Source of the DNA: Clostridia bacterium
GTDB taxonomy: Bacteria > Bacillota > Clostridia > Oscillospirales > CAG-272
Direction: 5' to 3'
Length of the DNA: 30,695 bases
Assembly: GCA_017556845.1 (NCBI GenBank)
Contig: JAFYMA010000147.1
Coordinates: 1-30,695, forward strand
Below are positions 4,037 to 28,438 of this stretch, piece by piece (position 1 is the first letter of the stretch; every line of letters starts with the position of its first letter). The notes below the pieces were generated by a model. The model was not told the DNA's origin. It saw only the letters and a list, made by a program, of their open reading frames with translations, and did not search any database. A program made the translations under genes and the position numbers.

Positions 4037-6820
4037 TCACTTTCTCTTTATAAACATATTTTTAAATCTGTTTGTAAGAACGCCGCCTTTGCGTGTGTCA
4101 ATAACGATGACAGTCACGGCAAGGCATATCAGCATAAACGCAGTGACCGACACTGCTGCAGCAACAGATGTTTTATCATTTTCTTTTTTAACATCATCAG
4201 TATCCGGATCCGTTTGTTCCGATCTTTCGGTTTCGGCGGGCAAGGTATGCTCATGCTCCGTCAGGGTACTGAGATATATGCCGTATACGCACAGTCTTGG
4301 AGTTATTCCGTCTTGTACACCTACGTATATTCTGTCAATTTCATCGTATGATCTTACCTTATCAAGATCAAGCATCACGGTAACGTCTCTCTGCCCCTGA
4401 ACGAACGATGTGCCAGAAACGGTAACGCCTGCACACTCTGCACTGACGGTTATCGACACTCCATCATCCGTGCCGAGATAATCAGCCTTCATATGAACTT
4501 CGAGGATCTTTCCTTCACCGCTTGTATTTTCATCGGGGAAGAATACGGCTGAGCCTTTTTTTAATTCTCTTACGTCGAATGACAGTGCAATATATCCGTC
4601 ACCGTCATTTGCGACCGACGTACAGCCCTCGCCGCACAGCCATTTTCCGCCGTTATCCGACGGAGAATACACCATATTTCCGTTTTCGTGCACCAAACCG
4701 TATTTTACATCAAGGGTTCTTTCGAGCTTTGTGTTATGATTAAAATGCGTGCTGTCGTATCCGTCTATGTCGAACAGCTCGGGATACACGTTTCCGAACA
4801 GATTTTTTGCAGATCTTTCATCCATATGTGTGAAGATGCCGCCCATTTTTTCGGCAAATGCGCTTTCTACGGCGAAAGCATCTGCGCCGCCGAATATACA
4901 TTTATAAAAATCGACAGCCGCCTTACCGTATTCATCATCTCCGTATCCGACCGACAAAACGAAAGCCTCGCATTGAGTACGCACGCTGATATATTTGCAG
5001 AACTCCTCGGTATTTTTTCCCTTTTCCGTTACGAACATAACTCCGTCAACAAAAGGACAAACGGGAAGTATCGTATTGAGCACGCTTTTGTAGTCAATGT
5101 CACCGTCATATCTGACGGGAAATATTATCTTACTTCCTCCGTTGACGCTTTTTGCGGCGGCATTTACCGTATAAAGCGCGGCAGCACACTGAACTGATGC
5201 GGAATACACGGATTTATCCGTTATATTGCCGCCGTTTCCGACTACGAAGCCGTTGAGAACACAGTCCTCGCCGTTATATCTCTGCGTCAAAAAAGCAGTC
5301 AGTGCATACAGCTTTATTGCTGACGCCTCATCGTATATGCCGGCCATTGAATAATACCACTCGTACTGCAGATATACTGCTTTGCCGTGGGCATACAGTC
5401 TCGGAACGAGCACGTCCAGCATGCTTATAACATCATTCGATATGTAATATTTTTCTCCGCAATATTCGTAAAAATACTCTGTTTTTTCTGTTGAGACCGC
5501 AATATCCGCATCTATCGGTAAAAATACGCCCGAAGCATCAAACGATGAGCCGAATGCAAATTTTTCCGTCACGGGCTTTACGTATTTGTTGAACTGTGCC
5601 GTTTTTTCTGCACCTTGCACGAACGTCGGCGGGCATAAGGTCACACCGTTTCCATCTTCGTCATAATACACTGACGTGTAGCTGTAAAAAAGTCGGCTTT
5701 GCCCGTTATTTCCCGCGCTGTCAAATGTAAATTCTCCGCTTCCGTCCTCATTCACCGCAATCGGTTGTGACAGATCAGCCGTACCGTTGGGCAGTGCCTT
5801 GTAAAGATAACATGCACCGTTTTCGGCTTGCGGTCCCTTGAACGATATTTTTCCGTCGTCACCGACGTAGCATTCTGCCGTATTGCCGCCCGATATATTA
5901 CAAGAAAGGGCGATGTTGTATATCAATATTTCCCCATCAGGTTTTCCCTGAAACTCAAATTCAAAGCGGCATACGCTTTCAACCCCGTCAAGAGAAAAAA
6001 CGTATGTGTTAAGCCCCTGCACCATTTCCGCACTTACGCTTCGCGCCGAGGAATATCCCTGACCTGCATCTGCGTAGTACAAAACGATCTTAGTGCATTC
6101 CGCGCGGTTGTCCGCGGTAAACGTAAGGGCATTCGTGCTTTCATCAAGAAGCGTGTCGATTCTGCCCGTTTCCAGAGTACAGTCTCTGCCGTAGGTGCTC
6201 AGAGTAATGATATCCTGCTGAAATTCAACGTCCGCCTTCGATGCGGTATATTCATCAGTCAGAAACTTTTTCTGATCTGACGGAGCAACGGTGTTTGACG
6301 TGCAAACGTAATCAACATACAATATTCCCTCACCGTCACATTCAAACGAAATGTCAATGCTTTGAAGCACGCTTGAATCTCTGTTTCTTATGTCAGAAGT
6401 AACCGTGAACCATTTTCCGCCCGATATTTCACCGCTCACACTGTATCCGTCACCGTCCGACAGAGTTATAACGCCGTCACACGAGGTCTTGCAGGCGAGC
6501 ATTATGCTTTTTGCGGAAGAAACGTTGAATTTGTCAAACTCAGCAAAAGCACCGAGCTTGTCAGTACCCGTTATCTTCATTCCGTACGCACCGCAGACAC
6601 AGTCCTCACTTTGCCTGATATTACAGTCATCATAAGGCCTCCAAATCGTCAGATCTGTCTCAAAATCGTCAATAAGCTCGTGGCAGGAAAACGAAAATTG
6701 CTCAGGTTGGATAAGTGAAAAGAAGCCGAGTGATGTTTGATCATGTCCGTTTGCGAGGATCGGAACATCCATTGCAAGCAACGCCAGCAGAACGCATACA
6801 AGCTTAAAAATACGCTTCAT
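4037..6820 (-). CDS. Secreted, C-terminally membrane-anchored multi-domain protein with beta-sandwich (CBM-like) modules and a degenerate DUF5722-like glycoside-hydrolase-type core
   Basis: Signal peptide MKRIFKLVCVLLALLAMDVPILA; C-terminal TM helix followed by a basic tail. The central YCGEKYYIS...LDVLV...AFLTQRY...GFVVGN pattern resembles DUF5722 proteins from memory. First gene of the operon with malQ and pulA. Confidence 0.6.
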   Translation of the reverse strand: MKRIFKLVCVLLALLAMDVPILANGHDQTSLGFFSLIQPEQFSFSCHELIDDFETDLTIWRPYDDCNIRQSEDCVCGAYGMKITGTDKLGAFAEFDKFNVSSAKSIMLACKTSCDGVITLSDGDGYSVSGEISGGKWFTVTSDIRNRDSSVLQSIDISFECDGEGILYVDYVCTSNTVAPSDQKKFLTDEYTASKADVEFQQDIITLSTYGRDCTLETGRIDTLLDESTNALTFTADNRAECTKIVLYYADAGQGYSSARSVSAEMVQGLNTYVFSLDGVESVCRFEFEFQGKPDGEILIYNIALSCNISGGNTAECYVGDDGKISFKGPQAENGACYLYKALPNGTADLSQPIAVNEDGSGEFTFDSAGNNGQSRLFYSYTSVYYDEDGNGVTLCPPTFVQGAEKTAQFNKYVKPVTEKFAFGSSFDASGVFLPIDADIAVSTEKTEYFYEYCGEKYYISNDVISMLDVLVPRLYAHGKAVYLQYEWYYSMAGIYDEASAIKLYALTAFLTQRYNGEDCVLNGFVVGNGGNITDKSVYSASVQCAAALYTVNAAAKSVNGGSKIIFPVRYDGDIDYKSVLNTILPVCPFVDGVMFVTEKGKNTEEFCKYISVRTQCEAFVLSVGYGDDEYGKAAVDFYKCIFGGADAFAVESAFAEKMGGIFTHMDERSAKNLFGNVYPELFDIDGYDSTHFNHNTKLERTLDVKYGLVHENGNMVYSPSDNGGKWLCGEGCTSVANDGDGYIALSFDVRELKKGSAVFFPDENTSGEGKILEVHMKADYLGTDDGVSITVSAECAGVTVSGTSFVQGQRDVTVMLDLDKVRSYDEIDRIYVGVQDGITPRLCVYGIYLSTLTEHEHTLPAETERSEQTDPDTDDVKKENDKTSVAAAVSVTAFMLICLAVTVIVIDTRKGGVLTNRFKNMFIKRK

Positions 6821-8285: not shown

Positions 8286-9248
8286 ATGAAAGAATTTATA
8301 ATAGGAAAAAACGATGCGGGAAAGCGTCTTGATTCGTTTCTGACGAAGGTGATACCGACACTGCCCGTATCATTGATGTATAAATCCATCAGAACGAAAA
8401 AAATAAAGGTCAACCGCAAGCGTGCGGAGCTTTCGTACAAGCTTGTACAGGGTGACAGCGTTCAGTGCTTTCTGAGCGAAGAATTTTTCACCGATGAAAA
8501 AAAGCCCGATATGCTTTTCACGTCGTTGCAGGGCAACGTAAATATCGTATACGAGGACGAAAACATTCTTCTTGCGGATAAAAAGGCAGGCATGCTGACT
8601 CATTCCGGTGACGGCACATCCGAGCCGACTTTAATTGATGAAATAAAGGCGTATTTGTTCAAAAAAGGCGAATACGAGCCTGAAAACGAGTTGTTTTTCG
8701 CCCCTGCTCTGTGTAACAGAATAGACAGAAATACCGCCGGAATAGTAATAGCTGCAAAAAATGCAGAGGCTTTGCGTATAATGAACGAGATGATAAAGCA
8801 GCACAAGGTGGATAAATACTATCTTTGCGCCGTACACGGCAAAATGGAAAAAACACACGGCATACTTACTGCATATCTTTTCAAGGACAGCACAAAGGGC
8901 AGAGCCTTTGTTTACGATAATGCAGGCAAGGGCAGAACGAAGATCGTGACGGAATATACCGTCAAGCAGTACAAAAACGATCTTTCCCTGCTTGAAATAC
9001 ATTTGATAACGGGAAAGACACACCAGATAAGAGCACATTTTTCACACATCGGCCATCCGTTGCTCGGCGAGGGCAAATACGGCATAAACCGTCAGGACAA
9101 AAAGCTCGGATACAGCCATCAGGCGTTGTATTCCTACAAGCTGAAATTCAACTTCGGTTCTGACGGCGGTATACTGTCATATCTTTCGGGCAAGGAATTC
9201 ACCGTTGACGAAAAAAATATTTATTTTTTGGAGGAATTCGGAATATGA
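8286..9248 (+). CDS. RluA/RluC/RluD-family 23S rRNA pseudouridine synthase with S4 domain
   Basis: N-terminal RLDSFL S4 domain, KKAGML, NRIDRNTAG (catalytic Asp), TGKTHQIR. Confidence 0.93.
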   Translation: MKEFIIGKNDAGKRLDSFLTKVIPTLPVSLMYKSIRTKKIKVNRKRAELSYKLVQGDSVQCFLSEEFFTDEKKPDMLFTSLQGNVNIVYEDENILLADKKAGMLTHSGDGTSEPTLIDEIKAYLFKKGEYEPENELFFAPALCNRIDRNTAGIVIAAKNAEALRIMNEMIKQHKVDKYYLCAVHGKMEKTHGILTAYLFKDSTKGRAFVYDNAGKGRTKIVTEYTVKQYKNDLSLLEIHLITGKTHQIRAHFSHIGHPLLGEGKYGINRQDKKLGYSHQALYSYKLKFNFGSDGGILSYLSGKEFTVDEKNIYFLEEFGI

Positions 9249-10840
9249 GAATACTTTTTCTGATCCTCAGCGGTGCAGTCAGCGGAATGGCGTATGCCGC
9301 ATACGATTATCCGATAATAATATATCTGTCGCTCATTCCGTTTTTCTATATAATATTCGACCGTGTTCAGCAGTCGTCTGCCGTGAAGATGTACGGATAC
9401 GGATTTGCGTTTTTTTACCCGTATTACCTGGCTGTATTTCACTGGTTCGTTTATCAGTATCCGCTTGATTTTCTCGGATTTTCAAAGCTGCAAAGCGTAG
9501 GATATATATTTCTTGCGTGGTTCGGCGTATCGCTTCTGATGACGGTGCTGTTTTCGTTCGTACCCGTATGTCTGTATCTGACAGTCAGACTGATAGGCAA
9601 ACGCAATATGCTATGTCCGCTTTTGGCAAGCTGCTTTTTCTGCATTTTTGAATGGCTCAATTCAAAAACTTTTATGGCAGTTCCGTGGGCACGCCTTGCA
9701 TTGACTCAGCAAAACAATATATTTGCTTTGCAGACGGCAAGCATCTTGGGCTCATTTTTCGTTTCGTTCACCATAGCCGCATTTGCAGCCTTCGCCGCTT
9801 ACGCTTTGCTGATACACAAAACAGATCTCAGGTGTGCCTTGATATGCGGTCTGTGTGCTTCGGTAACGGTAACGGGAAACTCCGCTGTCGGTATGGTGCT
9901 TTATAATCTTGACACAACAGGTCAGGACGGTGACGTTATAACGGTTTCAGCGCTTCAGGGAAATATTCCGTCAGGCGACAAATGGCAGGATAATTCATCG
10001 TACAAGGCACTATCAACGTACGTAGATATGATATACAACGAAAGCAAATTATATAACACAGATGTATTCGTTATTCCCGAAACGGCGATCCCCGTGACGC
10101 TTGATTACTATCTGTCATATACGGATACGCTTAAAAAAGCGGCAAAGGATACAGAATCGGTAATTCTCGTAGGCGCATTTGACGTTGACGATGAGGGCAG
10201 ATCGTACAACTCCATATTCGTTTTCACCGCCGACGGTGAGCTTCACGAAAGAGTATATAACAAACAGCACCTCGTTCCGTTCGGAGAATTTTTGCCGTTC
10301 CGCTCCGTCCTTGAAAAGATATTGCCCATGCTTTCCGATATCAATGCACTCGGCGAGGATATCGAGCGCGGAGAGGAATCGGTGGTGTTCAATACAGAAA
10401 GCGGAAATATAGGCTCGCTTATCTGCTTTGATTCGATATTTGAGCTTCTGGCAGCAGAAAGCGTATCAAACGGAGCAGAGCTGCTCGCAATATCGACGAA
10501 CGATTCGTGGTTTTTGGATTCTGCGGCAATATACGAGCACAACGGTCACGCGATCCTCAGAGCGATAGAGACCCGCAGATGCGTTATCCGCGCGGCAAAT
10601 ACGGGGCTTTCCTCCGCTATCGACCCGCAAGGTCAGGTATACGCAAGTCTTGCTCCCTTGCTCACGGGTGCCGTTACAACGCAGGTGCTTTTGAGAAACG
10701 ATATTACGTTTTTCGTTGCCCATCCCAATCTTTTCATCGGGCTTTGCATCGCTTTTTGCGTAATAACGCCGTGTGCATACAAGGGCATTCCTCTATTCAA
10801 AAAGCTGAAAAGCAAATACGCATCAGCACAGAAGATCTGA
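9245..10840 (+). CDS. lnt: Apolipoprotein N-acyltransferase (nitrilase fold, multi-TM)
   Basis: N-terminal TM bundle, VPWARL, QGNI, PETA, YNKQHLVPFGE, ICFDSIF, TNDSWF, RAIE, RAANTGLS. ATGA overlap with the upstream gene. Confidence 0.9.
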   Translation: MRILFLILSGAVSGMAYAAYDYPIIIYLSLIPFFYIIFDRVQQSSAVKMYGYGFAFFYPYYLAVFHWFVYQYPLDFLGFSKLQSVGYIFLAWFGVSLLMTVLFSFVPVCLYLTVRLIGKRNMLCPLLASCFFCIFEWLNSKTFMAVPWARLALTQQNNIFALQTASILGSFFVSFTIAAFAAFAAYALLIHKTDLRCALICGLCASVTVTGNSAVGMVLYNLDTTGQDGDVITVSALQGNIPSGDKWQDNSSYKALSTYVDMIYNESKLYNTDVFVIPETAIPVTLDYYLSYTDTLKKAAKDTESVILVGAFDVDDEGRSYNSIFVFTADGELHERVYNKQHLVPFGEFLPFRSVLEKILPMLSDINALGEDIERGEESVVFNTESGNIGSLICFDSIFELLAAESVSNGAELLAISTNDSWFLDSAAIYEHNGHAILRAIETRRCVIRAANTGLSSAIDPQGQVYASLAPLLTGAVTTQVLLRNDITFFVAHPNLFIGLCIAFCVITPCAYKGIPLFKKLKSKYASAQKI

Positions 10841-10912: not shown

Positions 10913-11689
10913 TTATACGGTTATCGGCTTTTTTTCGCTGCCTTTGGCAAGCAGTCTTTTCGCAGTGACGTATATGCCCGTAATAACGGTACACATCCCG
11001 AACACCGCACCTCTTACCGCAAGCGGCATAAGCAGCTTCGGAACGAACGAAAACATCTCTCCGCGCACAAAGCACCAATCGTATATATGCGTTTCGGTGG
11101 AATACACGTGACTGCCGAGCGTTCCCCACAAAATAGTGGCGATCATAAGCACAAGGACCTTCCAAAGCTTTTTAAACCGAAGGACCACATCACCCGTTGT
11201 AAGACACAGTATTCCCCAGCCCATCAAACAACCGTGAAACATGAACGTCTGGATCACCTTGTAGCAAAACGGAGGTATTCCTCCGAGCGCAGAGCCGGGA
11301 TAAGTTATATACATAAGACTCGTCACAAGACCGAGACAGCAAACGGCATCCTTGACACGTGCAAAGCGTCTGTTGAACTGCACGAACGGGACAAGAACTC
11401 CCATAGCCGTACAGAAATGGAACGGCAGCTTATCTATATCTATTGCATTGTCTCCTTCGGACAGCGGCATTATGAAAAAATCAGCAATATACAGCGTTAT
11501 CACCGTAAGAGCATATATGGAAAGCGCCTTATTTTTCGTCTTTTGCGGTTTGTTTTTCAAATACAGAGCCGTAGAGAATATCACGCCCAGAATAACGGCA
11601 ATATAAAGTATGTGCCACACTGAAAACAGTGTTATATCATATTTGCCCTCCGGGGCAAAAAATTTCAGTAAAAACTCTCTCAAAGCCAT
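10913..11689 (-). CDS. YwaF/TMEM164-like integral membrane protein
   Basis: Multiple TM helices; LFSVWHI, LPFHFC, FMFHG motifs typical of YwaF-family proteins. Confidence 0.7.
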   Translation of the reverse strand: MALREFLLKFFAPEGKYDITLFSVWHILYIAVILGVIFSTALYLKNKPQKTKNKALSIYALTVITLYIADFFIMPLSEGDNAIDIDKLPFHFCTAMGVLVPFVQFNRRFARVKDAVCCLGLVTSLMYITYPGSALGGIPPFCYKVIQTFMFHGCLMGWGILCLTTGDVVLRFKKLWKVLVLMIATILWGTLGSHVYSTETHIYDWCFVRGEMFSFVPKLLMPLAVRGAVFGMCTVITGIYVTAKRLLAKGSEKKPITV

Positions 11690-13170: not shown

Positions 13171-13367
13171 ATCGACCACCTCCTTATGCTATCCGTAATG
13201 CAGTATATGCACGCATTATTGATTTGGTTCTATTGCTTTTATAAAAAAGCTATCAGCGCACTTTAAAGTATTGTTTATCTTATTAACTTTGATTGTTAAT
13301 AGTTGTGTTGTAAAATGTACAATATCAATCAAGAAATAGCATAAAAAAACAAAGAAAGAGGTAAATT

Positions 13368-16300
13368 ATGCCGAATTCGTTTCCTATCAACTTTTCCGGA
13401 TCTCCCCTTTACACCGTAATGCTTATGGTAGCGGCGCTATCCGCTTTTATAATGCTGAACGTTTTTATGAAAAAGGGCGGGTTTTCAAAATTCGTTAAAA
13501 AGCGTGTACGCCGCAGCTTAGGCTACTCTGCTATACTTGCGTGTATTTTCTCAAATATGGCAAACTGGTGCTTTCACCGTGAAATACTCAGTCTGTCCGT
13601 GTTTGACCGTTTTGCTAAGGGCGGTACAGCCTTTATCGTGTGGATAATATGCTTTATCGGCTTTTCCGCACTGTTTTTAAGGCTATACAAGCTTGATTTG
13701 AAAAGGTGTCTTGACATTATCGCCCCGCCGCTGCTTCTCGCCACGGCTGCAGCGCGCATCGGATGCCTTTTTGCAGGCTGCTGCTACGGAGCTGAAATAT
13801 CGCTCGGTGATAATATCGTACACTTTCCGATTCGTGAAACGGAAGCAGTATTTTCTTTCATACTCTCTATCATTCTCTGCTGCAAATTCAAGGGCAAGCG
13901 GCTTTCAGTCTATTTGATAGCGTATCCCGCTTTCCGTTTTTTTGCTGAATTTCTCAGAGGTGACGACCGAGGAAGCCTTTTCAATATAAGCGTTCTTTCT
14001 CCGACACAGATCATATCCGCCTTGATCGTTATTACGACCGCAACGGTTCTTATAATAAATGCGGTAAAAAGATCAAAAGCAAAAAAGAATATCGAGGCGA
14101 TAAAAGCCCAAGAGATAAAAACAGATCCTGCACATAATACGGACGTCCTTGATACAAACACCGAAGGGAATACGGATACAGAATGCGAAATAACGCAGAC
14201 GGAGCAAAAAAACGAGCCTTCAGACACCGCTTCCGACACTGCCGCACCTCAAGTGCAAGAAAAAAAGGTGCAGAAAAAGCAAAAGAAAAAATACACTCCG
14301 AGGCCCGTTGACTTCAACGATCCAAGCATCAAAAGCAATCCGCTGAGAATAATTCTGACAGTCATTGCAGTTATCGCCGCGATCGTTGCGCTGTTCATTA
14401 TGAACAACCCGTTCGGTCTCGGCTGGGTATCAAATGCGGATTATTACATAAGAGATTCGCTCGGCTTCATATTTGACAGCGGAGCATTCTCAAACGAGAT
14501 AGGATATACGGACGGCAACAGTGCGCTTGACGTATCAGGCTGTGACGAGGTCAAGAACGGCAACGAAGCGTTAGAGCTTATCAGATCGCACAGCACTTGG
14601 AGCGATCATTCGTACACCGCATTCAGCACAAGGACTCTTACGGGCGGATATAAAGCATATACGTTTGTCCGTACAGAAAACGGTCTTCCCATATTCGGCA
14701 GATCGTCGTCCTTGATAGTGGACAGTGACGACCGCCCCCTTTTCATCATAAACGATGAAGCAAACGATACGTTTACAAATGATACAGTCGGACAATACGC
14801 CGTAACTGATACAACGTACAAAAAATACGTTGCGGAAACCGACGAGATCGTAAACCGCACAGAATGTCTGTACGATGTCGGAACGGGGCTTTTGCACGCT
14901 GAGCTTTTGCAGATAAAAGGCAGTAACGGCTCCTCTTACGGAATACTGATAGAGCCCAAAAACGAAACTGTAATAAAGCTTTTATCCGATGCAAGCGTTT
15001 TGTCACACAACGTCCGCGCCGACGTCATTATTGATGCGGCGGAAAAGGCCGAGGCTCTTATTTCAGAAGACGAAACAGAGATGATCAAGCAGTTGAACTC
15101 AAAGAAGGCAAAAACGCTTGAGCTTGAATATTTGTCAACGGCGATGCAGGGTGCTATCGGCAGATCGTATATCAAATCGAAACTGAGCAGTGAGGATTTC
15201 TCTGCGGCACTCCGAATGACGATTGAAATAGCGTATACCGTCCCGGATCTTAACGAGCAGTTATTCTGCGATATTCTTTCCAAGACGGTAGAGCAGACGG
15301 CTAAGGACAACGGAATTTCCGACAGCGATGCCGAAAAGCTCGGAAAAACCGTAAAAAGCTCTTTTAAATCAAGCGGAATCAAGCAAACGAAGGATGAAAA
15401 GACCGTTCAGCTTGACGTAAACAAAAGAAAGACGGTCATCAAAAATACGATCGGATGTGCAAGCGACGTTGACACAGTAAAGCTCCATATGCCCGAAAAC
15501 TCGTATATGAAGCTCGAAATATCGGGAAAGGTCAGCGTTGATATTGAGGTATACTCAGAAAGCGGAAATCATATCGTTACAACGTACTCCTCGTCAGCTC
15601 AAGAGATAACTCTCTATCCATCAGACGGAACGGACTACGTTCTTAAAATCAAATCATCGGATGCGCAGCTGGTAAGCTGGTCGGGTGAAGGATCGTACAA
15701 GATAAGTGCGTACTCCGAGGAGGACGACGGACAGACGCCGTTTTATGTAAATACCACTCTGTACGGAATATCCGCCGCATTCTCAACGTCAAAAAGCAGC
15801 GTTTTCGGACTTATCTTCTATGGCGATGCCGCTTATTCCGGCGACGAATATATGGCACTTTGTATGCTTCCCTCTCTTGACGGCTGCTACACGATGAGCA
15901 ATAGCTGTGCCGGCGGAGAGTTTCAGCTTACGGATCACGTAAAGGAAGAGATATTGCGAAAGCTTCTCGTGTCTGAGGATATGATCGACGGCGTTACGAT
16001 CGCTCCGGATACGGTGATGGAAATATCGTGCTTCAGATTTATCAATGTTGAAAACGGAACGCTCGTAAAGGCGAGGATAAACGTAACTGACGCTGCGGGC
16101 AATTCCCGCCAGGGATACAGCTTCTTTAAGCTGGAGCTTGTAACGGATATAGAAGAATTTGACACGAACGTGGAAAGTCCTATCTGGACAAAGGAAGAGC
16201 TTGAAACGTTAAGCGCCATATTCAACGCAATTTTCAGCAACAAGTATTATATAACCGAGCTTAATACAGAGGAGCTTTTGTCATCATTCGGCGACACCTT

Positions 16301-16874
16301 CGATAACATCAGCGAGGAAGGCGGAATGCCCTCGTTATACGATTTCTGGACGACAACGCCGGGCGAATTTGCATTTGTAAAGGAATTTGACAGACAGGCG
16401 GCACTGAATGCAGGATACAGCGAAGAACGTGTTGATGAATTTGAAAGATTCACTCTCAGGCACAACGCCGCATACTTTGACAAGATGTGCGAAAACATCA
16501 CGTTAATACACGATTCGCTTGAATTATACAGTGCGGGGATCATCAGCGGAATGAAGCTGTATGACTTTATCGACGATCCCATAGGTGCACTGATTGATTC
16601 AAGCACCGACGATATGACGGTAAAATCGTGCTATCGAATAGGAAAGATCGTATGGGGCGTATTCACCGGCAATATAAAGGACATAGCCGAGGCAGTCAGC
16701 GACGTCGCCTTTGAGGATTATGTTAAAATGGGTGTTAAATCCTACGCTGAACAGCTTGCGCTTGACGCACAACAGCTTTCGGATCAGCGTTTAAAGATCG
16801 AAATGGCTGCCGCTGAATACAGAGCAAGGGCTGAGCAGACGGATAAAAAATACTTCTGGGAGTACATATTTTAA
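13368..16874 (+). CDS. Fusion protein: N-terminal Lgt-like (prolipoprotein diacylglyceryl transferase family) membrane domain plus a large extracellular region with FTP/PepSY-like and beta-sandwich domains
   Basis: Residues ~1-235 carry RIGCLFAGCCYG and YPAFRFFAEFLRGDDRG. A charged linker and an extra TM (~aa 326-345) follow, then YTFVRTENGLPIFG..SLIVD (FTP-like). RBS AGAGG. Confidence 0.7.
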   Translation: MPNSFPINFSGSPLYTVMLMVAALSAFIMLNVFMKKGGFSKFVKKRVRRSLGYSAILACIFSNMANWCFHREILSLSVFDRFAKGGTAFIVWIICFIGFSALFLRLYKLDLKRCLDIIAPPLLLATAAARIGCLFAGCCYGAEISLGDNIVHFPIRETEAVFSFILSIILCCKFKGKRLSVYLIAYPAFRFFAEFLRGDDRGSLFNISVLSPTQIISALIVITTATVLIINAVKRSKAKKNIEAIKAQEIKTDPAHNTDVLDTNTEGNTDTECEITQTEQKNEPSDTASDTAAPQVQEKKVQKKQKKKYTPRPVDFNDPSIKSNPLRIILTVIAVIAAIVALFIMNNPFGLGWVSNADYYIRDSLGFIFDSGAFSNEIGYTDGNSALDVSGCDEVKNGNEALELIRSHSTWSDHSYTAFSTRTLTGGYKAYTFVRTENGLPIFGRSSSLIVDSDDRPLFIINDEANDTFTNDTVGQYAVTDTTYKKYVAETDEIVNRTECLYDVGTGLLHAELLQIKGSNGSSYGILIEPKNETVIKLLSDASVLSHNVRADVIIDAAEKAEALISEDETEMIKQLNSKKAKTLELEYLSTAMQGAIGRSYIKSKLSSEDFSAALRMTIEIAYTVPDLNEQLFCDILSKTVEQTAKDNGISDSDAEKLGKTVKSSFKSSGIKQTKDEKTVQLDVNKRKTVIKNTIGCASDVDTVKLHMPENSYMKLEISGKVSVDIEVYSESGNHIVTTYSSSAQEITLYPSDGTDYVLKIKSSDAQLVSWSGEGSYKISAYSEEDDGQTPFYVNTTLYGISAAFSTSKSSVFGLIFYGDAAYSGDEYMALCMLPSLDGCYTMSNSCAGGEFQLTDHVKEEILRKLLVSEDMIDGVTIAPDTVMEISCFRFINVENGTLVKARINVTDAAGNSRQGYSFFKLELVTDIEEFDTNVESPIWTKEELETLSAIFNAIFSNKYYITELNTEELLSSFGDTFDNISEEGGMPSLYDFWTTTPGEFAFVKEFDRQAALNAGYSEERVDEFERFTLRHNAAYFDKMCENITLIHDSLELYSAGIISGMKLYDFIDDPIGALIDSSTDDMTVKSCYRIGKIVWGVFTGNIKDIAEAVSDVAFEDYVKMGVKSYAEQLALDAQQLSDQRLKIEMAAAEYRARAEQTDKKYFWEYIF

Positions 16875-16917
16875 ATAAAAGCACGGCGTGCTTGAACAAG
16901 TCCGATAAAAACGGACA

Positions 16918-16973
16918 ATGACAAAAAGAACCCTCCTATGGTATAATTAGAAAAAACCATAGGAGGGCTTTTT
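16918..16973 (+). promoter_or_regulatory. IS internal promoter overlapped by an RBS-sequestering/terminator hairpin
   Basis: ATGACA-18 bp-TATAAT with extended -10 TG. Perfect 12 bp IR CCCTCCTATGGT (16931-16942) / ACCATAGGAGGG (16956-16967) covers the AGGAGG RBS and is followed by TTTTT. Confidence 0.75.
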
Positions 16974-17309
16974 ATGCCAAGAAGTTACCAACATATCAAG
17001 AAATATGAGTCTGAAATAGTCAAGCTGAAGGAACAAGGATATACAAAACGAGAAATTGCAGAAAAGTTGGGATTTAGTAAAGAACAAATAAAAGGATTAC
17101 TAAAAAGAAAGAGAAAAAGAGAAGAAAAACAAGCTTATGGAATCATGCCGAAGAAAAGAGGTAGACCCACAAAAGATTATGTTGTAAGCGAACAAACAAA
17201 AGTTGCCGAACTAAAATATATTCTTGCTCGTAAAGAGGCCAAGATAAAGAGTTTGGAGATGGAGAATGAACTGATGCGGGATTTTCTCTCTCTCACAGAA
17301 AGGAAGTGA
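16974..17309 (+). CDS. IS3-family transposase OrfA (HTH)
   Basis: GYTKREIAEKLG HTH, KKRGRP, C-terminal coiled coil ENELMRDFL. Confidence 0.9.
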   Translation: MPRSYQHIKKYESEIVKLKEQGYTKREIAEKLGFSKEQIKGLLKRKRKREEKQAYGIMPKKRGRPTKDYVVSEQTKVAELKYILARKEAKIKSLEMENELMRDFLSLTERK

Positions 17310-18160
17310 GAACAAGCGTAAAATATATGGTAATCTATCGTCACAAAGATAAATATTCAATTAGTGAGATGTGCCAGTTCTTCGAGGTGTCGAGAAGTGG
17401 CTACTATGACTATGTCAAAAGAATGACTAAACCTGCATGGTATCTGCCTCTTGCCAACAAGATCAAAGAATGCCCGGACAAATGCGGAAAAACCTACGGT
17501 TATCGCCGCGTGCATATATGGCTTGAGCGCAACGGCATACATAAGAATCCCAAAACAATATTGCGAGTTATGCAAAAGTACAACTTGTTATCGGTAATCA
17601 GAAGACGCAGATTCTACAAACATACCGAGCATCTTCATAAATACCAAAATCTTTGGAAACAGAATTTCCAAGCAGATCGACCTAATCAAAAATGGGCAAC
17701 GGATATTTCGTACATACACACAAAGCAAGGTGTGCTATATCTTTCTATCATTCGAGATTTGTATGACGATAGCATTGTGGCATACAACACCGGGACTCAA
17801 CAGACGGTTAATCTTGTATTAGATACAATAAAAGCAGCTAAAAGAAAAGAGAAGGTCACTGCAGAGTTGCAGCTCCACAGTGACCAAGGCTTTCAATATA
17901 CTTCCCATGCATATTTCAAGCTTACTCAATCATACAACATTACACCGTCAATGTCAAGTAGAGGTAATCCTTATGACAATGCTATGGCAGAAAACTTCTT
18001 CTCAATTCTCAAAACCGAATGTATTTATCGTACAAAGTTGAAAACCTATGAGGAGGCGCGCCTCCTCATAGGCGAATACATACGTTTTTATAACAATGAA
18101 CGTATCCAAATAAAAACAAAACTGACTCCGCTTGAAAAACGAAGTCAGTATGTCGTCTAA
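17306..18160 (+). CDS. IS3-family transposase OrfB (DDE integrase core)
   Basis: YGYRRV, WATDISY (D), HSDQGFQY (D), DNAMAENFF (E), YNNER. In the -1 frame relative to orfA, with a GTGA overlap. Confidence 0.93.
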   Translation: MRTSVKYMVIYRHKDKYSISEMCQFFEVSRSGYYDYVKRMTKPAWYLPLANKIKECPDKCGKTYGYRRVHIWLERNGIHKNPKTILRVMQKYNLLSVIRRRRFYKHTEHLHKYQNLWKQNFQADRPNQKWATDISYIHTKQGVLYLSIIRDLYDDSIVAYNTGTQQTVNLVLDTIKAAKRKEKVTAELQLHSDQGFQYTSHAYFKLTQSYNITPSMSSRGNPYDNAMAENFFSILKTECIYRTKLKTYEEARLLIGEYIRFYNNERIQIKTKLTPLEKRSQYVV

Positions 18161-18220
18161 AATTTAATGCTATACCATATGGGGCTTTTTTGTGCTGTTC
18201 GTACAATTTGGGGCACAACA

Positions 18221-25265: not shown

Positions 25266-27185
25266 TTAGTAACAGACGTATTTTATGAGAAGAGATTCTC
25301 TTTTGTTCGGTATTTTAAGCTGTATACCGTTTTGCGCAAGCTCTTTTCCCGAAAATATAAAGCTTTCGTTTGTATCGGCATTTATAAATTCATACGTTTT
25401 GCTTTCATCAATTCCGCCGAGCATAACGTCTGCCGCGGCAAACGGGCATTCTTCTCTGCGGAAGGCAAGTATTATACCGCTGCTCGTTTCAGGCTCGTCG
25501 TATTGCGATGCCGCCCAAGATACAGTTTCCTTTGAGTTTTTTATCAAAGGATAGAAATCGCAAGTAAAATAGTGCTGAACGGACAAATACTCATTGAAAT
25601 ACTTTCTCGCCCAATCGAACGGCTCGTTCGTCGCTCCGACCTCCCACTCAAAATCGGCATGCTCCCACGTACGAACAGTCATTCCGGGTGAGTAAGCACT
25701 TCTGAAGCTGTACGTATCACCGAGCGTAGGGCCGTATCCTACGCCTGAATAAGGATACCACCACGCATTTCCTATCGTCTGAAGCTGATAGCCCTCAGGA
25801 GCGTTATCCCATATACTGCAATAATCGCTTCTCCAAAGCGTTATAGACCTTGCAAGCGCTTCTATGTCAAGTCGGTGTCCGCCGCCTGCACAGTTGTCGA
25901 TAAGCAGATACGGGAACCTTTCAAGAAGTGTGTCCCAGAATCTGTAAAGGTTGTTTATGTATCTTATCTCATTTACACCGTCACGGTCATTTTCGTCGTT
26001 CAATCTCCAGAACGGGATTGGACCTATGTTGAAATCCTGTCTGTAAAGCGTTATGCCGAGCCTTTGTATAAGCTCGCTGACCTTTTCTATCAAAGCTTCC
26101 GCGACCTCATCCTTATGCAAAGCGATTATGACGTTTTTATCATTGGGATCGTGCATCGGCTTCATATATTCAGTCCACGGCTCTACGTTCAGATTGATCC
26201 TTTCAGGCTCAAACCAAAGCTGGAATTTTATATTCTTTTCCTTAAGCCATTGCACAGCGTCCGAAAGGCCGCCCGGATGATAAAGCTTGCTCACCTGCCA
26301 CGTTCCGACGGTGCCCCATTCTGCCGACTGCTCTGCACACGTTTTGCCCTTCATAGGCTCATACCATCCGGCATCCATCCAGCAATAATTGAACGGAAGA
26401 GCTTCCTTGAAGATACCCTGCCACCGCCTTTTTAAAGCATCGGTGGAAATTCCGCCCCAGAATATCGCAGAAAACGGGCATTCCTTATCACGCTGCTGCT
26501 TTCCGACGGGAGAAACACAGTCCTTTATGTATCTTCTCCACATATTGTGAGCGTTGTCCTGACCGTTGTCGTATTCAAGGACAGTTACAGATGACGTTCT
26601 GAATTTTTCGCCCGGCTTCATGTAAAATCGGACGCCCTCTATACGAGAAAGAAGCCTTACGTCCTTTTCTCCGCGCTCAAACTGAGCATTCCACTGGCCC
26701 GTCCAACCTATCGCCATGAGAACGCCCTTTTCCCGTCTGTTAAGATCAAAAAACGGTGACGTTCCCATTCCGCTTCTGCCCGAATGATTGGCTGCCTTCA
26801 GCGTTTCATTCGGCCAAAAGCGTGTGGCGTACGCCATATTATCGTAATCGGTGATGTTCGCTCCGTCTGTAATATAGAGCTTCAGCGTGTCAGTCGTCCA
26901 CACGGAATGCTTGTTTTTTCTGTTTTTCGCAGGATCTGCATCAAATTCAGCCGTAGTATCGCAGTCCCACAGATCTGATACTATACCGCTGTTACGGTCG
27001 GTATCATTGTACCAGTAATTCGTCCATTTTATTACGTTGTACTTTAGAAATCTTTCTATACGGCATTCTATGCACAAGCCGTCAGACAGAGTATATTTTA
27101 TTCCTTTTTCGGTTTCAACGATCGTTTTTTCAAGCTCCTCAAACGGAACGCCGTTATATTTAAAAGAAAAACCGGGATTTATCAT
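25266..27185 (-). CDS. Alpha-galactosidase (GH36)
   Basis: CWMDAGWY, LWFEPER, YRQDFN (nucleophile), IDNCAGGGHRLD, WRSD (acid/base). No signal peptide. Confidence 0.88.
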   Translation of the reverse strand: MINPGFSFKYNGVPFEELEKTIVETEKGIKYTLSDGLCIECRIERFLKYNVIKWTNYWYNDTDRNSGIVSDLWDCDTTAEFDADPAKNRKNKHSVWTTDTLKLYITDGANITDYDNMAYATRFWPNETLKAANHSGRSGMGTSPFFDLNRREKGVLMAIGWTGQWNAQFERGEKDVRLLSRIEGVRFYMKPGEKFRTSSVTVLEYDNGQDNAHNMWRRYIKDCVSPVGKQQRDKECPFSAIFWGGISTDALKRRWQGIFKEALPFNYCWMDAGWYEPMKGKTCAEQSAEWGTVGTWQVSKLYHPGGLSDAVQWLKEKNIKFQLWFEPERINLNVEPWTEYMKPMHDPNDKNVIIALHKDEVAEALIEKVSELIQRLGITLYRQDFNIGPIPFWRLNDENDRDGVNEIRYINNLYRFWDTLLERFPYLLIDNCAGGGHRLDIEALARSITLWRSDYCSIWDNAPEGYQLQTIGNAWWYPYSGVGYGPTLGDTYSFRSAYSPGMTVRTWEHADFEWEVGATNEPFDWARKYFNEYLSVQHYFTCDFYPLIKNSKETVSWAASQYDEPETSSGIILAFRREECPFAAADVMLGGIDESKTYEFINADTNESFIFSGKELAQNGIQLKIPNKRESLLIKYVCY

Positions 27186-28438
27186 ATTTCCTCCGCAACA
27201 TTATATTTTTGCATTTTTTCATTTTGAAGTGAAACACTCTGATCGTTTTTATAATATTTATTCACAAGGCTCACATAGCCCTGCTCTTTCATGTCGCCGT
27301 ATCTGAATTCAAACCGTGATTTATTACGTTTTCCCGTGGCTATATATCTTATACAGTCCTGCATATACAGATCTATCTGATGCAAGGAGCGATCTGTGCT
27401 TATCACGGGAAAAAACCACCTCGTCCACGTCAGCTCGTTCGATCTTGGATTATCGAAAAGCTTTCGGTTGAAGCACCGTATAAATACACGGCAGGCTTTT
27501 ATTCTGTCTACGTTGTTTTTGTCTGCCCAGCGGCACAGCGCCCTGCTTTTACGGCGCATCTTCCGTTTCAGTTTTTCCACGGATGCTCTGCAAATATCAA
27601 TTTCGCCGTTATTGTACGAAAAGCCCAAAAACGTCCATTCGGTATACGGCTGTGATACAGATTCCTTTTTTGAATTTATCTTAAGTCCCTTTTCATCCAA
27701 AACGCTTTTTATGTAGGAAATGCACGCTTCAAGCTCGTTTTCATTTTTTGCAAAAACGATAATATCGTCAGAATACCGTGCATACGGTATACCTCTGTCA
27801 AAAAAATATGCATCAAGCTCACTCAGATAAAGATCGGCAAGAAAGCCCGACACGGGAACACCCGCCATTATTCCTCTTTTCTGATATGTAGGCTCGTCGT
27901 TGTATAAAGCGTAGGGATATTCAAGAACGGAACGCAAAAACGAATAAAGGGCAGGATCGTTTGCCAAAGCGTTTTCAAGCATCGGCAACAGCTTTTCAAT
28001 GTCAACGGAATTGAAATAATCGCTGATGTCAAGCTTATACGCATAGTATCCGCTTATGCCGTCGAGCTTCAGAATATCGTTTATGGCATTTTTCACACCG
28101 TTGTTTTTTCTGAATGAATAAAGGTTGGGCGAAAAAATGCCGTCATACTCCGAAAGCATATACGCTATCAGCTTCAATACGTAGTTTTCTTCACGGCGGT
28201 AAACGTATACGGTACGCTTTTTATCCGTATTTGACTTGTTGAGAAGAACCTTTTGCGGTGGTGAAAAACAGCCGTTATTCAATATATCGTCCGCTATCGG
28301 AAGATATTCGCCGTTTTCAATGAATGTAAATAGATCGCCTCTTTCATCTATTGAAAGATTTCCGCACCTTTCTTTATGCTCAAAAAACGCAAGCCATTCT
28401 TCTTTATTTTTCAAACGCTCAAGTATACTGATGTGCAT
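27182..28438 (-). CDS. Stand-alone group II-like reverse transcriptase (YSDD), not within an intron
   Basis: RT1 PQKVLLNKSNTDKKRTV, RT2 FSPNLYSFR, RT3 KLDISDYFNSVD, RT4 GIMAGVPVSGFLADLYL, RT5 YARYSDD, RT6 GLKINSKK, RT7 FLGF, then a thumb-like C-terminal region with no endonuclease domain. GGAG RBS. Confidence 0.92.
   Translation of the reverse strand: MHISILERLKNKEEWLAFFEHKERCGNLSIDERGDLFTFIENGEYLPIADDILNNGCFSPPQKVLLNKSNTDKKRTVYVYRREENYVLKLIAYMLSEYDGIFSPNLYSFRKNNGVKNAINDILKLDGISGYYAYKLDISDYFNSVDIEKLLPMLENALANDPALYSFLRSVLEYPYALYNDEPTYQKRGIMAGVPVSGFLADLYLSELDAYFFDRGIPYARYSDDIIVFAKNENELEACISYIKSVLDEKGLKINSKKESVSQPYTEWTFLGFSYNNGEIDICRASVEKLKRKMRRKSRALCRWADKNNVDRIKACRVFIRCFNRKLFDNPRSNELTWTRWFFPVISTDRSLHQIDLYMQDCIRYIATGKRNKSRFEFRYGDMKEQGYVSLVNKYYKNDQSVSLQNEKMQKYNVAEEI
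27200..27228 (-). promoter_or_regulatory. Candidate promoter for the alpha-galactosidase, embedded in the RT 3' tail
   Basis: TTCAAA-17 bp-TATAAT directly before a GGAGG RBS; the resulting leader would be very short. Confidence 0.45.

Follow-up and report, generated by a model that had tools for sequence, protein, structure and literature searches.

An Lgt-family membrane domain joined to a large extracellular region in gut Clostridia

The locus and the integrity of the gene

The window analysed here is a stretch of 30,695 nucleotides (contig JAFYMA010000147.1) from a fragmented MAG of an Oscillospirales-type gut Clostridia bacterium (268 contigs, 74% complete). Positions 13368-16874 of the forward strand are occupied by a complete ORF of 1168 residues (protein P0001), whose coordinates in the window ORF list agree exactly with those first annotated, and a Shine-Dalgarno sequence (AAGAGGT, 13356-13362, +) lies 6 nt before the ATG. 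Further upstream, positions 13213-13355 are rich in A and T and contain hexamers that weakly resemble promoter elements; the promoter-like sites at 13289-13323 did not exceed chance in a promoter scan, and the terminator scan gave the same outcome. The encoded protein consists of a 7-TM Lgt domain, a cytoplasmic K/E-rich linker, an eighth TM segment (TM8) and an ectodomain of ~830 residues, in which an FTP-PepSY pro-domain-like pair is followed in turn by a bundle of helices, a beta-sandwich like those of PPC/collagen-binding domains, a putative NTF2-like domain and a long hairpin of helices. The first-pass annotation, made from the sequence alone, had described a non-protease surface protein carried on an Lgt-family membrane domain, and this parsing was right in its essentials.

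By blastn, the window is homologous to the closest related genome (G017) up to 13212 and again from 18221, and ~75 bp lie between the same flanks in G017. The gene sits alone on a 3.7-kb island (13213-16889, no strand assigned) that is absent from G017. An IS3-family insertion sequence (16919-18196, +) follows, with 24-nt terminal inverted repeats at 16922-16945 and 18171-18194 and with orfA (16974-17309, +) and orfB (17306-18160, +) encoding HTH and rve domains. A strain contig of run X4 lacks this element and joins 16889 directly to 18221, giving the island without the IS, and the metagenome depth of the element is very high and multi-copy; the IS3 element is a later insertion just past the gene and outside its function. 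In one sequencing run, guessed to be RNA but possibly DNA, fragments of the gene are present at low depth.

The fusion gene is an accessory gene in a genome that carries a canonical housekeeping lgt elsewhere, and a search of 200 other genomes from the source's family did not recover the fusion. The lnt gene that had been pointed out 2.5 kb upstream is indeed an lnt equivalog (9245-10840), but its proximity is coincidental because lnt belongs to the backbone shared with G017 and the fusion gene lies on the inserted island. No gene neighbourhood is conserved across the window and three further loci (L003, L005 and L006), and no client is indicated there. The phage collection yielded weak Lgt-domain matches on three faecal phage contigs only, the plasmid search yielded none, and no PADLOC family was matched.

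The fragmented state of the MAG raises the concern that the long ORF is an assembly chimera, or two genes fused by sequencing error. However, ~30 representative full-length relatives from many assemblies share the fusion, with the ectodomain beginning near residue 300 (ten full-length homologs are 29-98% identical to P0001, and Pfam LGT is found in 29 of 40 relatives), and contigs of three independent studies run without a break across the Lgt domain, linker, TM8 and ectodomain. Strain variants along the ORF comprise 30 synonymous and 6 non-synonymous changes, three of the latter in the linker, and the whole gene is under strong purifying selection. The chance of an artefact is therefore practically negligible. 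The junction is supported, relatives do not encode the halves as separate genes, and the C-terminal region is not an ordinary protease. Two apparent variants of the architecture were discarded. A shorter form of 594 aa (P0056/P0057) is represented by P0056, a truncated copy that is 82% identical to P0005 and ends inside the helical bundle, and P0058 (229 aa, on a 907-nt contig) is a contig-end fragment of a fused gene.

The Lgt-family membrane domain

Residues 1-235 (13368-14072, +) form a Cys-type, short-head, 7-TM Lgt-family domain. Pfam LGT (PF01790) matches residues 14-229, scoring 73.3 bits where the cut-off is 24.9 (77.7 bits when the genome was searched), and hydropathy together with the positive-inside rule predicts seven TM segments with the N-terminus outside and the C-terminus inside, the predicted cytoplasmic loops containing 8, 4, 4 and 17 K+R. 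The motifs quoted in the first-pass annotation (ARIGCLFAGCCYG, GGTAFIVW, FPIRETE and FRFFAEFLRGDD) are all found in P0001, and the family shows little or no variation in them. On the other hand, the fused domain falls far below the equivalog cut-offs (TIGR00544, 29.5 versus 118.9; NF000778, its best NCBIfam match, 65.3 versus 334), which are passed by the controls, namely the genome's own canonical Lgt (184), Cys-type Lgts from genomes with no other Lgt (158-170) and L019 (391 on NF000778).

By residue mapping onto E. coli Lgt (5AZB/5AZC; TIGR00544), which has the same 7-TM fold family and inferred topology, the equivalents of Y26, R143, G145, G154, P197, E202, Y235, R239, E243 and R246 are kept in P0001, whereas H103 is replaced by I, G142 by A, and N146 and E151 by Cys. 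The signature variant R130-I-G-C133-L-F-A-G-C138-C139-Y-G141 (13755-13790, +; DNA pattern match at 13761-13789) corresponds to R143...N146...E151...G154 of the E. coli enzyme, and its R, G, three C and final G are 100% conserved in 33 fused-clade proteins. In the same set, the residues Y15, R130, G141 and R190 (equivalent to the essential Y26, R143, G154 and R239), as well as Y186, R197 and G132 (Y235, R246 and G145), are 97-100% conserved, and C133 and C138, which occupy the Asn146 and Glu151 positions, are both invariant. The H103-G-G-L motif at the start of TM3 is lost and reads I-V-W-I in P0001; across the fused clade the H103 position is Y in 55% of cases, and F, V, Y or A stands in place of G104. 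This motif is thought to dock the lipobox peptide, and its position reads Y/W-GGL in Firmicutes and Actinobacteria. The periplasmic head between TM4 and TM5 is also missing: 12 residues separate the G154 and P197 equivalents, compared with 43 in E. coli (a head of ~45 aa reduced to 12 aa), and hhalign places a gap of ~40 residues relative to the genome's own canonical Lgt.

No other module of the protein is as well conserved as the Lgt domain. Among the 33 fused-clade proteins, at a mean identity of 41%, 19 positions are at least 94% conserved, and 11 of these 19 are known Lgt functional sites (odds ratio 41). The alignment shows that nearly all that stays invariant within the fused clade is the Lgt phospholipid-binding and catalytic network (the equivalents of Y26, R143, G145, C146, C151, G154, P197, E202, Y235, R239 and R246), while the HGGL motif of the putative acceptor site has decayed.

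The Cys-rich signature had been taken as a peculiarity of a repurposed domain; instead, it defines a common Cys-type, short-head Lgt subclade that occurs in 69 of 401 genomes of the class. A Cys-type Lgt is the sole Lgt in two genomes that are 99-100% complete (G302 and G521), and both of these proteins pass the NCBI lgt equivalog cut-off, which implies that replacement of N146 and E151 by Cys does not by itself exclude activity. Since it supplies the only Lgt of some complete Clostridia genomes, the Cys-type subclade is probably active, and L. interrogans Lgt with N146C complements E. coli in part (PMC13251419). The stand-alone members (NF000778-like, 230-300 aa, GRIGCFFAGCCYG) share with P0001 the signature R-x-G-C-x3-G-C-C-Y-G, the motif FRFxxEFLRGDDRG and the short head loop, which in the nearest stand-alone relatives (P0059-P0065) has 12 residues as in P0001. 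Unlike the fused clade, which lies on a long branch and scores 50-65 bits on NF000778, they retain [Y/I/L]GGL in the place of HGGL and lack an ectodomain. In a quick IQ-TREE tree, all fused Lgt domains fall into one clade (SH-aLRT 99) with a long stem branch (0.91), and the best explanation is that the fusion arose once, from a Cys-type short-head Lgt paralog and a type-II single-pass surface protein.

Linker, TM8 and ectodomain

The charged linker and extra TM segment proposed at the outset are supported by hydropathy and the positive-inside rule. The linker (residues 236-322; 14073-14333, +) is K/E/T-rich, of low complexity and predicted to be cytoplasmic, with 17 K+R, and ends in the conserved motif KKYxPRPVDFxDPxI (alignment A1). 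TM8 (residues 323-350; 14334-14417, +) has a hydropathy peak of 2.94, and the conserved motif NPF marks its outer end. Relatives without an Lgt domain keep the NP motif too. A role of the TM8-NPF end as a mimic of a signal peptide that blocks the acceptor cleft of Lgt was rejected, NPF being equally conserved in those relatives. Self-lipidation of the protein, as suggested in the first-pass annotation, found no support either: no Cys lies at or after the outer end of TM8 that could serve as a lipobox Cys, and the conserved Cys cluster of the ectodomain (C840, C847 and C888) has D/E at -2, is placed inside a predicted helix of the NTF2-like domain and lacks a lipobox.

The ectodomain evolves faster than the Lgt domain. 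Its first module, a pair of FTP- and PepSY-like domains resembling the M4/M36 pro-domains (residues 383-541; 14514-14990, +), was modelled by AF2 with a pLDDT of 84.8 (m06387ef02c85). The alignment of this model with 4k90_B, the FTP-PepSY pro-domain of fungalysin, extends over 153 residues and gives Z 9.8; Foldseek also matched the model to YpeB and the vibriolysin pro-domain. Pfam FTP (PF07504) is not called in P0001 itself but is called in 8 of 10 close relatives and in 17 of 40 from the wider set (best E 6e-8). For the PepSY-like half, there is support at the fold level from the C-terminal PepSY domains of YpeB (E 1.7e-5, but a TM-score of 0.35), whereas Pfam PepSY (PF03413) appears in only one of 40 relatives (E 0.0019). 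A six-helix bundle follows (residues 549-668; 15012-15371, +; DSSP of the model, helices 204-323), for which no informative match was obtained.

The next module (residues 675-787; 15390-15728, +) bears out the predicted PPC-like beta-sandwich, with Foldseek E-values of ~1e-5 to ~4e-5 to PPC, collagen-binding and GOLD-like folds. It reaches Z 10-10.7 to the collagen-binding domains of ColG and ColH and to a B. anthracis PPC domain, and Z 11 to GOLD domains (VIA); P0001 has no Pfam PPC match, and the assignment is made at the fold level. The helical C-terminus was correctly anticipated, but a putative NTF2/cystatin-like alpha+beta domain preceding it had been missed (residues 786-967; 15723-16268, +; AF2 model m2ca5f542517a, pLDDT 82.6). 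This domain matches dozens of NTF2-like chains at Z 8-9, a range graded middling by the tool, and its Foldseek probabilities are 0.93-0.99 but with E > 0.05. The long antiparallel helical hairpin (residues 1019-1165; 16422-16862, +; DSSP helices 234-373) gave generic coiled-coil matches only (Z 8-9) and is followed by a subfamily-specific tail, YFWExxF. A search of the ESM Atlas returned no usable match for residues 786-1168 and, for residues 346-800, a 'peptidase C-terminal domain' (score 0.77) that serves as a lead only.

As had been noted for P0001, HExxH is absent, and this holds for all 54 family proteins; Pfam likewise gave no peptidase match. In general, the models show an ectodomain composed of binding-type folds only, which is predicted to be non-catalytic. 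The ectodomain module with its own TM segment also occurs in relatives in which a Zn-ribbon is all that accompanies it, and there are relatives that carry a lipase, its GHSxG intact, in place of the C-terminal module.

Possible function and relation to known systems

Based on the sequence comparisons above, we give a probability of roughly one half to the reading that the protein is a specialised lipid transferase of Lgt type, accessory in the genome and under the direction or regulation of the binding ectodomain tethered to it, and neither a protease nor a housekeeping Lgt. The membrane domain would still bind an anionic glycerophospholipid in the cavity at its centre. Most likely it would also still transfer the diacylglyceryl group of that lipid, but to an acceptor that is non-standard or dedicated. 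With its binding and chaperone-type modules, the ectodomain may stand in for the missing head over the outer face, where it would recruit or position the acceptor or gate access to the cavity. A narrower form, a client-specific or ligand-gated diacylglyceryl (lipid) transferase acting on a non-lipobox or dedicated surface target, in a mobile family with an exchangeable distal module, is put forward as speculation only.

The FTP-PepSY pair could instead act as a membrane-tethered inhibitor or chaperone of a secreted M4/M36-type protease, or of another hydrolase encoded elsewhere, with the Lgt domain being incidental. FTP and PepSY domains are known as pro-domains and inhibitors of M4/M36 peptidases, the PepSY domains of YpeB stabilise the hydrolase SleB, and the fold matches to both groups agree with such a role. 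However, the 74%-complete genome yielded no FTP-bearing gene and hence no M4/M36 pro-enzyme, no protease gene is linked to the fusion gene in any locus examined, and the conserved Lgt active-site network would be left unexplained, which makes this role highly improbable. A more serious alternative, possible though on balance doubtful, is that the Lgt-derived domain is catalytically dead and serves as a phospholipid-binding platform for the localisation or oligomerisation of a surface adhesin or scaffold, all of the biology residing in the ectodomain. In E. coli Lgt, mutations at H103, at neighbours in the G104 region, at G142 and in the head domain abolish or impair function (PMC4728403; PMC13251419), and the absence of these features from the fused protein counts against retained activity. 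The scores under the lgt equivalog cut-offs, the long stem branch and an ectodomain built of binding folds point in the same direction, and the conserved buried Arg and Glu could be retained for lipid binding or folding without catalysis. On the other hand, the invariant residues are exactly the head-group-binding and catalytic ones, and the Lgt module is the slowest-evolving part of the protein. The role of an anchor, which the first-pass annotation had also considered, is unlikely for the Lgt part because the ectodomain brings its own TM segment, and a Zn-ribbon anchor is enough in relatives.

Ligand gating, with the ectodomain as a sensor of an extracellular ligand or of the surface state that turns an Lgt-type activity on or off, would have a parallel in the VanZ/Skillet Lipocone enzymes, where a polytopic lipid enzyme is likewise joined through one TM to a variable extracellular binding domain, PepSY-like and beta-sandwich sensors being among those listed (bioRxiv 10.1101/2025.01.14.632903). 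The faster evolution of the ectodomain, the exchange of the C-terminal module for a lipase and an occurrence that is patchy and tied to islands, as is typical for niche or conflict genes, would fit such a switch. Nevertheless, the analogy is one of architecture alone, to a superfamily unrelated to Lgt in which the regulatory reading is itself a prediction, and the PADLOC, phage and plasmid searches gave nothing in its favour; we regard it as rather unlikely.

Returning to the preferred reading of a directed accessory transferase, a conserved core combined with a remodelled acceptor site and a binding ectodomain would point to the recruitment of Lgt chemistry to a second, specialised task. On the narrower, speculative reading, P0001 could be the first enzyme of the Lgt family with a recruiting or sensing domain of its own built in on the extracellular side, and part of a horizontally transferred surface 'lipid-editing' toolkit of gut Clostridia, with the hairpin here and an active-looking lipase in relatives. 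In the current view, Lgt is an enzyme that stands alone, has a single housekeeping function and is a candidate target for antibiotics. Some 14,700 PF01790 matches were covered by a recent survey, which described paralogs and one unexplained C-terminal extension, with no fusion to extracellular domains, and the Lgt-ectodomain fusion is an architecture new to descriptions of the family. M. tuberculosis Lgt (Rv1614) also has a long C-terminal extension (PMC13251419), for which no homology or extra TM has been reported, whereas the extension of P0001 (830 aa outside the cytoplasm, after an eighth TM) crosses the membrane and folds, as modelled, into defined extracellular domains. The fold modelled for residues 383-541 matches the fungalysin pro-domain and, less clearly, the PepSY domains of YpeB, but the P0001 family differs from the M4/M36 enzymes in lacking a peptidase domain, in tethering the module to the membrane and in the unrelated domains that follow it. 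Finally, the occurrence of Cys-type Lgts (N146C/E151C) as sole Lgt bears on the roles proposed for N146 and E151 and on the interpretation of paralogs such as M. smegmatis MSMEG_5408, which with the L. interrogans N146C protein is a further Cys-type comparator (PMC13251419).

The Lgt-ectodomain fusion and its modules

The ORF at 13368-16874 (plus strand) comprises 1168 open codons with a good Shine-Dalgarno sequence 6 nt upstream of the start. In a Pfam scan, LGT was matched at residues 14-229 (73.3 bits; cut-off, 24.9), and no other match was found in the remaining ~930 residues. The 1168-aa Lgt fusion described in the first-pass annotation is borne out by 10 full-length proteins sharing the architecture (29-98% identity, 92-100% coverage), and all the motifs quoted there are present and invariant or nearly so when these 10 homologs are aligned. 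With the ectodomain alone as the query, an exhaustive HMMER search recovered just 46 representatives among 1.8 billion, most of them ~1100 aa long with the match beginning near residue 300; Pfam LGT is present in 29 of 40 ectodomain representatives. A chimera produced during assembly is excluded by the full-length relatives and by Logan contigs from three different studies, which run unbroken over the Lgt domain, linker, TM8 and ectodomain (13658-14656 in run X1, 13751-15037 in run X4 and 13503-14867 in run X8). Among the strain variants listed in the gene, 30 of 36 are synonymous, against a chance expectation of ~22%, and the low-complexity linker holds three of the six non-synonymous ones. 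Purifying selection acts along the whole gene, and the gene is real.

Hydropathy and the positive-inside rule predict an outside N-terminus, seven TM helices, a K/E-rich cytoplasmic linker (residues 236-322), an eighth TM (TM8, residues 323-346) and an extracytoplasmic remainder, in agreement with the charged linker and extra TM noted earlier. AlphaFold2 models built from the family alignment are confident for residues 346-801 (pLDDT 84.8, pTM 0.83) and 786-1168 (pLDDT 82.6). Residues 383-541 are modeled as a pair resembling FTP-PepSY pro-domains, which matches the fungalysin pro-domain at Z 9.8 across 153 residues and, in Foldseek, YpeB and the vibriolysin pro-domain; Pfam FTP is found in 8 of 10 close and 17 of 40 wider relatives. 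A six-helix bundle (residues 549-668), for which structure comparison gave no informative match, is followed by a PPC/collagen-binding/GOLD-type beta-sandwich (residues 675-787, Z 10-11), an NTF2-like alpha+beta domain (residues 786-967, many consistent matches at Z 8-9, a middling range) and a long antiparallel helical hairpin (residues 1019-1165, generic coiled-coil matches only). The FTP-like and PPC-like segments and the helical C-terminus suggested from the sequence are recovered in the models, the PepSY-like segment more tentatively, and HExxH, reported missing from the C-terminal region, is absent from every family member. Every recognizable ectodomain fold appears, from these models, to be a binding or chaperone-type module.

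The possibility that the Lgt domain is a mere anchor is not favored. Distant relatives have the TM-NPF-FTP module in common with just a cytoplasmic Zn-ribbon ahead of the TM, and because they carry this module without an Lgt domain, the ectodomain protein is likely a self-sufficient type-II membrane protein, to which the fusion would have added a 7-TM enzyme domain superfluous for anchoring. The distal module is also exchangeable. In P0040 and P0042, a C-terminal class-3 lipase or alpha/beta-hydrolase follows the Lgt domain and the greater part of the ectodomain. Five relatives (P0040, P0042, P0045, P0047 and P0052) share the FTP-containing ectodomain and end in such a module, as indicated by Pfam Lipase_3 in P0040 and an intact GHSxG in the other four; at the N-terminus they carry the Lgt domain or just a Zn-ribbon and a TM.

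Residue conservation in the Lgt domain and the Cys-type subclade

By pairwise alignment of the window protein with E. coli Lgt (5AZB), R130, G141, Y186, R190, E194 and R197 correspond to R143, G154, Y235, R239, E243 and R246 and are kept; N146 and E151 are changed to C133 and C138, and H103 is lost (I90). The window gene is an Lgt paralog, since a canonical lgt lies elsewhere in the genome, on a separate contig (Pfam, 241 bits; TIGR00544 equivalog, 184 bits against a cut-off of 118.9). In this canonical Lgt (contig C139, L001:2-1126, minus strand), H103 is replaced by Tyr, the head is long (about 55 residues), and the strongly acidic, D/E-rich C-terminal tail continues past the contig end.

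A search for shorter relatives of residues 1-240 returned many stand-alone Lgt-family proteins of 230-300 aa, which share the signature GRIGCFFAGCCYG and the FRFxxEFLRGDDRG motif, have a head loop of just 12-28 residues and show Y, I, L, M or F in place of H103. The Cys-rich variant noted initially is thus the hallmark of a whole subclade. Of 401 genomes sampled from the class, 69 carry the Cys-type motif, and these represent 47 of 219 genera (reversed control, 0 matches). In two small Clostridia genomes of 0.9-1.1 Mb (G302 and G521, 99-100% complete), the sole PF01790 match is a Cys-type gene (G302:C8:1631-2344, L017; G521:C3:490547-491260, L018) scoring 158-170 bits, above the lgt equivalog cut-off. 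In each of three other genomes, a canonical copy is accompanied by a Cys-type one; NF000778, the best NCBIfam match of the window protein, is passed by one of these three Cys-type copies. One study describes distant Lgts with C or C/D in place of N146 and E151, partial complementation of E. coli by L. interrogans Lgt (N146C), and Y at H103 in Firmicutes Lgt (PMC13251419). Taken with the sole-Lgt genomes, this means that neither N146C/E151C nor the loss of His103 is a sign of a dead enzyme, and the G302 and G521 genes are relevant to the proposal that Asn146 is essential.

A quick ML tree places every fused N-terminal domain, including those of relatives with a different C-terminal module, in one clade (SH-aLRT 99) on a long stem. 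The nearest stand-alone proteins are mini-Lgts of 244-251 aa with the same 12-residue head loop, a weakly supported grouping. When 33 representatives of the fused clade are compared (identity 41% on average, 26% at the lowest), conservation reaches 94% or more at only 19 of 235 positions, and 11 of the 19 correspond to Lgt residues with a function defined in the literature (Y26, R143, G145, N146 as C, E151 as C, G154, P197, E202, Y235, R239 and R246), an enrichment with an odds ratio of 41 and a Fisher p of 8e-10 for sequences that are mutually related. The Lgt module is the slowest-evolving part (mean identity 62% vs 35-53% for the ectodomain modules). On the other hand, conservation in these 33 proteins does not extend to the HGGL motif, G142 or N149, and the head domain is absent from the window Lgt domain. 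HGGL is the proposed docking site of the lipobox peptide, and E. coli H103 mutants are inactive (PMC4728403); the head domain of E. coli Lgt is described as important for function and substrate specificity (PMC13251419). Judged from the alignments, the putative phospholipid-binding and catalytic network has been selectively retained in the fused clade, and the presumed acceptor-docking motif has decayed and the head has been lost.

Origin, setting and possible function

The sequence comparisons indicate that a Cys-type, short-head Lgt paralog and a single-pass FTP/PepSY surface protein were joined once, in an ancient fusion. The gene is accessory and island-borne, beside the canonical lgt. In the closest related genome (G017), the cysteine-desulfurase gene and mgsA are adjacent (92-95% protein identity to the window flanks), and window 13213-18220 takes the place of ~75 bp. 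Part of this segment is an IS3-family element (~16919-18196; orfA/orfB, 24-nt inverted repeats), which is a later insertion, because in one strain contig that lacks it 16889 is followed immediately by 18221; without the element, the island is 3.7 kb long and holds a single gene. In gut metagenomes the summed contig depth of the IS3 element is in the thousands vs ~5-12 for the flanking gene, so the element is present in very many copies or spread over many organisms. A search for the ectodomain in 200 further sampled genomes of the same family (97 genera), including three of the same genus that are 96-98% complete, gave no match, and no conserved gene neighborhood was found among the loci. GTDB species representatives with the gene are Clostridia and Acutalibacteraceae MAGs from cattle guts, yak guts and two samples without a host in the record titles; the runs holding it are pig, bovine, manure and other gut metagenomes from 10 studies.

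We infer that binding of an anionic glycerophospholipid has been kept by the membrane domain and that Lgt-type transfer probably has been too, with a non-standard or dedicated acceptor as its target; the tethered binding ectodomain would stand in for the head by recruiting, positioning or gating. One rival is a catalytically dead Lgt domain serving as a lipid-binding platform, which would fit the decayed docking motif; the retained catalytic residues and the sole-Lgt Cys-type genes speak for an active enzyme. By analogy with the proposal for 'Lipocone + TM + X' architectures, the protein may instead be a ligand-gated enzyme. A further, unlikely candidate is a role as tethered inhibitor or chaperone of a secreted hydrolase. 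The Lgt family, the Cys-type substitution and the FTP/PepSY, PPC and NTF2 folds are already known. The Lgt literature examined, including a survey of ~14,700 PF01790 hits, describes no Lgt core covalently joined via an eighth TM to a large multi-domain region outside the cell.

Other genes of the window

The lnt gene placed 2.5 kb upstream in the first-pass annotation is present (9245-10840, plus strand; TIGR00546, 262 bits with the cut-off at 133; CN_hydrolase and LNT_N). It lies on the backbone common to the window and G017, so its closeness to the fusion gene is coincidental. Lnt is classically linked with diderms and Actinobacteria, and here a bona fide lnt equivalog is found in a Clostridia MAG, a monoderm lineage. 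Between lnt and the cysteine desulfurase is a TMEM164-family polytopic membrane protein (10913-11689, minus strand; Pfam 45 bits, NCBIfam name absent). A 927-aa ORF (4037-6820, minus strand) with only a sub-threshold DUF5722 match adjoins starch/glycogen genes (GH77 4-alpha-glucanotransferase and CBM48/alpha-amylase). In addition, a reverse transcriptase ORF (27182-28438, minus strand; RVT_1, 86 bits), possibly from a group II intron or a retron, has a 4-bp overlap with the start of the Melibiase-family (alpha-galactosidase-like) gene downstream of it on the same strand (25266-27185, minus strand).
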